Source of the DNA: Escherichia coli
Lineage (GTDB): Bacteria; Pseudomonadota; Gammaproteobacteria; Enterobacterales; Enterobacteriaceae
Strand: one strand, 5' to 3'
Length of the DNA: 64,000 nt
NCBI RefSeq assembly: GCF_013315695.1
Contig: NZ_CP054353.1
Shown here: positions 41,950 through 42,663 of the stretch, one piece after another
Position numbering within the stretch: position 1 is the first letter of the stretch
Layout of the letters: each line of letters begins with the position of its first letter
Position numbers and translations under genes: made by a program
The notes under the pieces: model-generated
What the model saw: only the letters and a program-made list of their open reading frames with translations
What the model was told of the DNA's origin: nothing
The model's database searches: none

Positions 41950-42663
41950 ATGGCTGTTGTCTGTTCAGTTATCATGGTTTGCTCCCCAATTAATATTTTT
42001 CTTGAAAAGGATACGTTGTCACTTAAGCCAGGCTCAGTTGTTCTGGCCACCAAATGCATCAGGGAGCTTTTCCTTATGCATTATGGCAAAGTTAAAATTG
42101 TCGATATAAGCGAATCCGTCGTAAGTCAATATCTGGAAAGTCAGCATAAGCTGACGAGGACTCGTCTGACTGACATTCCGCTTTACCTGTTGCTGGAACC
42201 CAACAATCCTGCGTTGGCTGCGGCTTTAATTACCAGCCAGGGATTTTCCGGAGAGGCCACGGATATGTTTCTTATGATGGCCTGCCTGTCTCTGTTTGAA
42301 ACAGATGAACGGATGTCATTGTTTTTAAGTGGATGTTTATCCAGCATAAGTGCCAAAGTCAGGGCGATAATTCAGACAGATATATCAGCAAGCTGGACGC
42401 TTGGTGCGATTGCTCTACAGTTGCATATGAGTGAGAGTTTGTTAAAGACAAAACTGAAAAATGAAGGGGGCATGTTCAGTCGCTTGTTGCTGGAAGAGCG
42501 GATGCGTGTTGCTGTAAATATGTTATGTTCCCGGCATGGATATGGACAGGCTATAGCAGAAAAATGCGGTTATTCAAGCAGGTCCTACTTTATTTCTGTA
42601 TTTCACCGCTATTATGGCTTCCCGCCAGACAGATATGTATCCAGGCAAGGGCTTGATTATTGA
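41950..42663 (+). CDS. AraC/XylS-family transcriptional regulator (prophage cargo); start uncertain
   Basis: C-terminal double HTH LGAIALQLHMSESLLKTKLKNEGGMFSRLLLEERMRVAVNMLCSRHGYGQAIAEKCGYSSRSYFISVFHRYYGFPP. Confidence 0.7.
   Translation: MAVVCSVIMVCSPINIFLEKDTLSLKPGSVVLATKCIRELFLMHYGKVKIVDISESVVSQYLESQHKLTRTRLTDIPLYLLLEPNNPALAAALITSQGFSGEATDMFLMMACLSLFETDERMSLFLSGCLSSISAKVRAIIQTDISASWTLGAIALQLHMSESLLKTKLKNEGGMFSRLLLEERMRVAVNMLCSRHGYGQAIAEKCGYSSRSYFISVFHRYYGFPPDRYVSRQGLDY

Follow-up and report, generated by a model that had tools for sequence, protein, structure and literature searches.

The window examined here, a 64,000-nucleotide (nt) stretch of Escherichia coli contig NZ_CP054353.1 (RefSeq assembly GCF_013315695.1), contains a lambdoid prophage that carries psr, an open reading frame (ORF) for a 237-amino acid (aa) AraC/XylS-family regulator, which starts with an ATG at 41950 and stops at 42661-42663 on the plus strand. 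We conclude that this gene, which forms a self-contained cargo cassette downstream of the antiterminator gene Q, is very probably a functional psrB (prophage-encoded secretion regulator B) allele; the prophage around it is inserted in mlrA and lacks the Shiga toxin (Stx) genes stx. The window protein is identical at 234 of 237 residues (98.7%), and its gene at 708 of 714 nt, to the 237-aa product of EDL933_RS10010 (WP_000301797.1, NZ_CP008957.1 1905274-1905987) in the O157:H7 strain EDL933. The three differing residues (A103V, H196Y and I202V) seem to be located outside both recognition helices. According to the two reviews from which we took the published Psr functions (PMC10877973, PMC8565820), the AraC regulator of O-island 57 (OI-57) is named PsrB (z2104), and this island covers 1849324-1929825, or z2048-z2151, in EDL933 (PMC8565820). 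We scanned the region 1845001-1930000 of EDL933 with a family hidden Markov model built from an alignment (A1) in which the psr protein is 28-37% identical to PatE, YdeO, AppY, EnvY, GadW and GadX. Since EDL933_RS10010 was the sole AraC-family ORF found across the OI-57 span, and the AraC regulator of OI-57 is PsrB, we assign the window gene as a PsrB allele.

The relation to the sister regulator PsrA points in the same direction. PsrA and PsrB are 90% identical (PMC10877973, PMC8565820), and a second O157:H7 paralogue, WP_000261909.1 of strain 4276, is identical at 215 of 237 residues (90.7%) to EDL933 PsrB and to the window protein alike, which agrees with the published value and thus places the window protein on the PsrB side. 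We presume from this 90% relation that the strain 4276 paralogue is PsrA; it was recovered via an O55:H7 allele and sits in a different lambdoid prophage, riddled with insertion sequences (IS). Moreover, at residues 157, 167, 174 and 211 in the DNA-binding half, where the PsrA and PsrB types differ, the window protein has the PsrB residue. The P0083 allele was also considered as a PsrA candidate and rejected, as O157 genomes match it at only 91.7%. The initial annotation had proposed a prophage-borne regulator of the PsrA/PsrB/PatE kind, and this is borne out by the near identity to the OI-57 gene and by 37% identity to ECs_0287, our candidate for PatE.

The double helix-turn-helix (HTH) C-terminal domain noted at that stage was likewise recovered. 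Pfam HTH_AraC matches the psr protein in two stretches (E-value 2.4e-13, 50.3 bits, cut-off 26.6) and HTH_18 matches residues 155-230 (E-value 5.8e-10, 39.8 bits, cut-off 33.6), both above their gathering scores. At its C-terminus the protein thus has the domain of about 100 aa, comprising two HTH motifs, that defines AraC/XylS regulators, and the DNA-binding domain of GadX (3MKL) aligns with its residues 134-233 (E-value 7e-19). The ORF is complete rather than a truncated fragment without the N-terminal domain, since the length of homologues with 38-92% identity stays within 236-244 aa, and their query coverage is 97-100%. In PHROGs, residues 1-236 match phrog_1450, which is listed as 'unknown function', and RefSeq holds the identical ORF of E. 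coli FDAARGOS_144 as a 'helix-turn-helix domain-containing protein' (WP_000301785.1). Comparison of psr with four other alleles gave dN/dS values of 0.22-0.41 overall and below 0.5 in each half, which indicates that purifying selection acts across the whole ORF.

Judging from its sequence features, the psr segment has the anatomy of a phage moron: it is present, absent or replaced among phages, the GC content of the ORF (43.8%) deviates from that of the prophage (50.9%), terminator-like hairpins flank it, and it has a predicted promoter of its own. We delimited the cassette by a blastn comparison of window positions 41300-43500 with the methyltransferase-bearing locus of EDL933 (L016), in which the left homology block runs from 41511 to 41886. 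Since homology with that locus ends at 41886, the predicted promoter is part of the psr cassette. The -10 hexamer of this promoter, a TATAAT that does not vary among five alleles, ends 35 nt upstream of the ATG; in the same five alleles the stem of the upstream terminator-like hairpin is conserved, while its loop changes in one. A further promoter-like site (TTGATT, 17-nt spacer, TATTAT) at 42653-42681 overlaps the 3' end of psr, ahead of the phage tRNA genes. The slot between the 65-aa ORF and these tRNA genes is a swap site for regulatory cargo, holding psr, a DNA methyltransferase gene or nothing: the methyltransferase occupies it in the first prophage of OI-57 and in phage phiP27, whereas in Sakai Sp10 and Sp14 it is empty and the tRNA genes directly follow Q. 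The conserved 65-aa ORF precedes psr or the methyltransferase gene in every locus with a filled slot. Nine other psr loci that we inspected all lie in prophage or phage contexts, with psr preceded by the 65-aa ORF and followed by tRNAs, stx or nanS-p. Directly upstream of stxA/stxB, some Stx phages carry a psr allele of 91% identity, and thus the psr slot adjoins the toxin slot. The Q-proximal position stated in the initial annotation is confirmed, with psr starting 1.3 kb 3' of the Q stop codon.

The gene is widespread. We found psr in 725 of 5426 complete E. coli genomes (about one in eight), with a median of two copies; at a nucleotide identity of at least 99%, 594 genome records match the window allele and 504 the PsrA-like allele, and the exact window protein occurs on at least 1000 public contigs. 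The carriers include O157, O145, O111 and O103 strains as well as human isolates from extraintestinal sources. The closest genomes are from human isolates, including the urine isolate FDAARGOS_144 and strain S88, whose psr region is 99.6% identical; we take S88 to be a neonatal-meningitis strain. Psr homologues in neonatal-meningitis E. coli were listed by Tree et al., as cited in PMC10877973.

PsrB has been reported to bind the promoters of gadE and hdeA (at -132 to -45 in the latter), to activate the acid-resistance system AR2 and hdeAB, to raise acid survival and to improve passage through the mouse stomach, and both PsrA and PsrB act through GadE and YhiF to repress type III secretion indirectly (PMC10877973, PMC8565820). 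AppY, a prophage regulator related to the psr protein, acts on the same acid-resistance regulon (PMC10057817). By analogy with PsrB, the most likely function of the window protein would be activation of gadE and hdeAB. The protein would be made in the lysogen and would bind AT-rich sites in the hdeA (-132 to -45) and gadE promoters, so that the GAD (AR2) acid-resistance regulon and the HdeAB chaperones would be activated and survival at low pH would rise. In hosts with a locus of enterocyte effacement (LEE), the increase in GadE and YhiF would then repress type III secretion, whereas a LEE-negative host would have the acid-resistance output only. Upon prophage induction, Q-modified polymerase might also pass the terminators upstream of psr and contribute to its expression, provided that psr has the late promoter on its upstream side. 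Of the 5426 complete genomes, 5410 have the hdeA-hdeD-gadE stretch, hence the PsrB targets are almost certainly present in the host. As to the cross-regulation of LEE and acid-resistance genes suggested in the initial annotation, the LEE arm would depend on the host; in the closest genomes, those of human isolates such as the urine isolate and S88, the acid-resistance arm alone would apply.

Several points weigh against our identification of the gene as a functional psrB. First, the 18 bases 5' of the ATG at 41950 are AATGAAAGTAAAATTATA and contain no Shine-Dalgarno sequence, thus translation of psr may be weak. Second, the psr promoter is a consensus match, and the region has seven promoter-like sites against 6.3 expected from shuffled sequence. 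Third, the function proposed for this allele and its host is carried over from the published work on PsrB, and the PsrB (z2104) label on EDL933_RS10010 rests on its position in OI-57 and on the 90% relation to its paralogue. Finally, the published psrA/psrB nomenclature is not fully reconcilable with the assemblies of EDL933 and Sakai as they now stand: in the reviews, psrA (z1789) is assigned to OI-50 (CP-933N) (PMC10877973, PMC8565820), and yet we found no AraC-family ORF in the whole of Sakai Sp6 or in the first 30 kb of EDL933 CP-933N (up to 1,660,000, in the stretch 1610001-1660000). No AraC-family ORF was found in Sakai Sp7 either, and Sp10, Sp14 and Sp17 have none by annotation. We suspect that the OI-50 placement of psrA goes back to an error in the original assembly or locus tags.

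Two other accounts of the function have to be considered. It is possible, though quite improbable, that psr is a phage-directed regulator, whose main targets would be phage genes such as the tRNAs, the nanS-p esterase, the downstream small RNAs (sRNAs) or the lysis-lysogeny circuit, with the effects on host acid resistance being side effects of overexpression. The position of psr among late-region regulatory elements (Q, the tRNAs, STnc100 and AsxR) would fit such a role, as would the overlap of the promoter-like site for the tRNAs with its 3' end and the PHROGs listing of its family without a function, and the acid-survival effect in mice indeed came from induced PsrB expression (PMC10877973). 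However, the slot is optional, being taken by a methyltransferase gene in some prophages and empty in Sp10 and Sp14, therefore no core phage function depends on psr. Furthermore, each of its closest characterised relatives is a regulator of acid-resistance genes of the host, and PsrB has been reported to bind directly to the hdeA and gadE promoters (PMC10877973). With no greater probability, the cassette could be a silent passenger, AT-rich and silenced in the lysogen, e.g. by H-NS, and contributing nothing measurable to the host. The low GC content of the ORF and the lack of a Shine-Dalgarno sequence would be compatible with this, and deletion of psrB alone has little effect on secretion in enterohemorrhagic E. 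coli (EHEC) (PMC10877973, PMC8565820). On the other hand, a silent gene is difficult to reconcile with the purifying selection over the whole ORF, with the 594 genome records that hold a nearly identical allele, and with the invariant -10 hexamer. Regulation of the host acid-resistance genes by a PsrB allele thus remains our preferred reading.

The start codon bears directly on the integrity of this regulator, and the initial annotation had doubted it. The lack of a Shine-Dalgarno sequence at 41950, on which that doubt was based, is real; nevertheless, the N-terminal conservation with homologues settles the start for 41950. The motif M-x-x-V-C-S-V-I at the N-terminus is common to the psr protein, YdeO, AppY, GadW and PatE, all of which align from residue 1, and in homologues down to 38% identity the residues M1, V3, C5, S6, K20, L25, G28, L32 and F41 are invariant. 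In contrast, where the window protein has Met43, divergent homologues have K, T, A, V or C. Since the alignment from residue 1 and the conserved residues 1-42, together with the non-conserved Met43, favor the start at 41950, the 237-aa form is, judging from this conservation, the conserved protein and the start at 41950 the correct one. That the real product is instead a 195-aa protein from Met43 (ATG 42076), without the first beta-strands of the N-terminal domain, is extremely improbable, even though many automatic gene calls in public data give 195 aa and a GGAG lies 9 nt upstream of this ATG, since it would leave unexplained not only the conserved N-terminus but also the dN/dS of 0.30-0.46 in the N-terminal half.

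The N-terminal domain of about 130 aa had been described as uncharacterised. It is true that no Pfam family matches residues 1-130, and a search of this domain against the PDB gave no direct match; however, it aligns from residue 1 with YdeO, AppY, GadW and PatE, and by profile with ToxT and Rns. An AlphaFold model of the psr protein from a 12-sequence alignment (pLDDT 62.8, pTM 0.40), with beta-strands in residues 5-53 followed by helices, was too uncertain and was not used for a fold search, and we relied on profile-to-PDB sequence searches in place of a structure-based one. In these, the Psr-family profile aligned at 75-230 with residues 104-259 of Rns (E-value ~1e-22) and at 25-232 with residues 53-269 of ToxT (E-value 3e-14 to 4e-13), the alignments with Rns and CsvR running from about residue 68-77 onward and E-values across Rns, CsvR and ToxT being about 1e-13 to 1e-30. 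Since the profile homology extends into the N-terminal regulatory domains of ToxT and Rns, the psr N-terminal domain is, on this evidence, a shorter relative of them. The best NCBIfam match of the psr protein is YdeO (NF007407; residues 1-229 against 1-230 of 253, E-value 4e-31, 108.5 bits), followed by GadX. Despite its full length, the YdeO match is far below the equivalog cut-off (348 bits), and the GadX match (NF007432; 87 bits, cut-off 500) covers the C-terminal half only. These comparisons indicate that the psr protein is a paralogue of YdeO rather than YdeO itself, and that it belongs over its full length to the AraC/XylS subgroup that comprises YdeO, GadW, GadX, AppY and PatE.

Putting these observations together, one may speculate that in LEE-negative, extraintestinal-type E. 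coli the PsrB allele is a phage-delivered, signal-responsive input to the GAD/HdeAB network, that its shortened ToxT/Rns-like N-terminal domain might sense a gut metabolite, e.g. a fatty acid, and that the few differences between PsrA-type and PsrB-type alleles in the DNA-binding half (T167I, R211W) might set which alleles activate acid resistance; we consider this proposal tentative and rather unlikely as a whole.

Features of the prophage around psr and the loci used for comparison (positions are those of the window unless another genome is named)
Feature	Location	Strand	Remarks
mlrA remnant ORF	24341-25027		MerR HTH match begins at profile position 16
Tyrosine integrase	25063-26349	minus	abuts mlrA
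isrK and C4 antisense RNA pairs, two tandem copies	33724-33909, 34587-34775	plus	Rfam, 62-81 bits; early region, near Rha-family genes
PerC-domain ORF, 164 aa, early operon	36420-36914	plus	Pfam PerC, E-value 7.9e-9, domain C-terminal
Antiterminator Q	40275-40646	plus	Pfam Phage_antitermQ, E-value 1.3e-47
205-aa ORF directly after Q	40722-41339	plus	phrog_8498, function not known; weak WYL match, E-value 0.0085
65-aa ORF	41618-41815	plus	weak TrmB-like winged helix, phrog_331
Terminator-like hairpin and T run after the 65-aa ORF, 5' of the psr promoter	41802-41829 (hairpin 41802-41819)	plus	
psr cassette (moron)	41887-42689	plus	803 bp, low GC; homology with the methyltransferase locus (EDL933 L016) breaks off at 41886 and starts again at 42690
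Predicted sigma-70 promoter of psr	41887-41914	plus	ATGATA, 16-nt spacer, TATAAT; consensus scan, 10/12 matches
psr, PsrB-type allele, 237-aa AraC/XylS-family regulator	41950-42663	plus	ORF list, Pfam, EDL933 identity, phrog_1450
Three phage tRNA genes: CAT (ileZ-type), Arg-TCG, Arg-TCT	42692-42941	plus	start 29 nt after the psr stop
Terminator-like hairpin and T run after the tRNAs	42956-42983 (hairpin 42956-42973)	plus	
STnc100 sRNA match	43017-43225	plus	Rfam, 131.7 bits
AsxR ('anti-stx2' anti-sRNA) match	43229-43281	minus	Rfam, 63 bits, exactly the gathering score
Loci at which slot contents were compared	EDL933 L016:13029-14087; Sakai L017:19565-19705, L027:33142-33353; L011:6001-8329		

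The prophage is lambdoid, with integrase, Q, lysis, terminase and portal genes and without stx. Since the MerR match of the mlrA remnant starts at profile position 16, the prophage is inserted in the 5' end of mlrA (yehV), the Stx1-phage site of O157:H7. Insertions in mlrA reduce curli and biofilm expression in O157. Going 3' from the integrase, immunity and replication genes are followed by the PerC-domain ORF, RusA, Q, the 205-aa ORF, the 65-aa ORF, psr and the tRNA genes, after which come the STnc100 and AsxR matches, a nanS-p-type esterase gene (43434-45395), and the lysis, terminase and portal genes. The position of the 205-aa ORF holds further variable cargo, a CPBP protease in the O157 prophage with the PsrA-like allele and a TfpB-like protein in Stx phages. 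The gap between the tRNAs and the esterase gene measures only 492 bp; the STnc100 and AsxR matches, each ended by a terminator-like hairpin, lie here, at the place that stxAB takes in Stx phages. A search for the late promoter pR' gave no convincing site directly 3' of Q, and a perfect TTGACA ahead of STnc100 (43003-43008) lacks a good -10. Psr genes have been reported to travel with type III secretion system effector loci and with Pch (PerC-family) regulators on the same prophage. The 164-aa PerC-domain ORF is a relative of the Pch/PerC activators of LEE, though it is an early-region protein and not a typical Pch, which has ~104 aa; the window includes the prophage as far as the tail genes, and no effector gene was found in this portion. 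The tandem isrK/C4 pairs resemble a duplicated antirepressor module of the P1/P7 type, controlled by c4. At the left end of the window (1-10611), ybjT-, ltaE-, poxB-, hcr-, hcp- and lysO-like genes (Pfam) and an IS110-family transposase gene (9313-10338) precede the yohP/mdtQ region, whereas in FDAARGOS_144 dusC, yohJK and cdd lie beyond mdtQ instead of these genes, a difference that suggests an IS-associated rearrangement of the source strain's chromosome. In the collection of complete genomes we found no exact 22-kb match to the window, the best matches being one of 99.7% identity with 95% query coverage and one of 100% identity with 91% coverage.

The regulator is already described and common in E. 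coli, so the finding, though correct, is an ordinary one, and it carries little weight as a discovery, given that the Psr family was described in 2011-2015 and an allele is found in about every eighth complete genome. Its value lies rather in the annotation, for which the evidence supports the name PsrB-type and the 237-aa start against the 195-aa calls of many pipelines, and in the cassette limits, which define a swap slot for regulatory cargo just upstream of the stx position in Stx phages. In addition, a PsrB-type allele is present in genomes from extraintestinal infections (the urine isolate FDAARGOS_144 and S88).

Being encoded on lambdoid prophages only is a criterion of the Psr family, and the window gene and the other loci inspected agree with it. 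The closest counterpart of the window gene, PsrB of EDL933 (OI-57, CP-933O), has the same length, a nearly identical upstream terminator and promoter region, and the same slot order (65-aa ORF, psr, ileZ-type and Arg tRNAs, nanS-p esterase). However, the EDL933 prophage has a DUF1133 protein upstream and two tRNAs, whereas the window prophage has a Phage_antitermQ-type Q and three tRNAs and lies in mlrA. The presumed PsrA of strain 4276 occupies the same slot and shares the Q type of the window prophage, but differs by 22 substitutions, including Q157R, T167I, G174H and R211W in the DNA-binding half. Of these, T167I and R211W presumably fall at or next to base-contacting positions, going by an alignment with MarA and the MarA-DNA structure. 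PsrB and not PsrA reportedly raised the acid survival of EDL933 in the work of Yang et al. in 2015.

PatE (z0321 of OI-8, which we equate with Sakai ECs_0287 in prophage Sp1) is likewise prophage-borne, has the same architecture (247 aa, aligned from residue 1), and is a reported activator of gadE and hdeA via the same hdeA promoter segment (PMC10877973). It differs in that its candidate ECs_0287 is only 37% identical to the psr protein and, instead of occupying the slot between Q and the tRNAs, is found at the far end of its prophage, which is defective. YdeO, GadW, GadX and AppY of E. coli K-12, encoded on the chromosome and on DLP12, are full-length homologues (28-34% identity) with the M-x-x-V-C-S-V N-terminus, and each one acts on gadE and on AR2; the psr protein, however, scores below every NCBIfam equivalog cut-off and belongs to a paralogous family of its own, phrog_1450. 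Rns, CsvR and ToxT, for which structures have been solved (6XIU, 9GFP and 3GBG), show homology that reaches into the N-terminal regulatory domain, but this domain is ~28 residues shorter in the psr protein.
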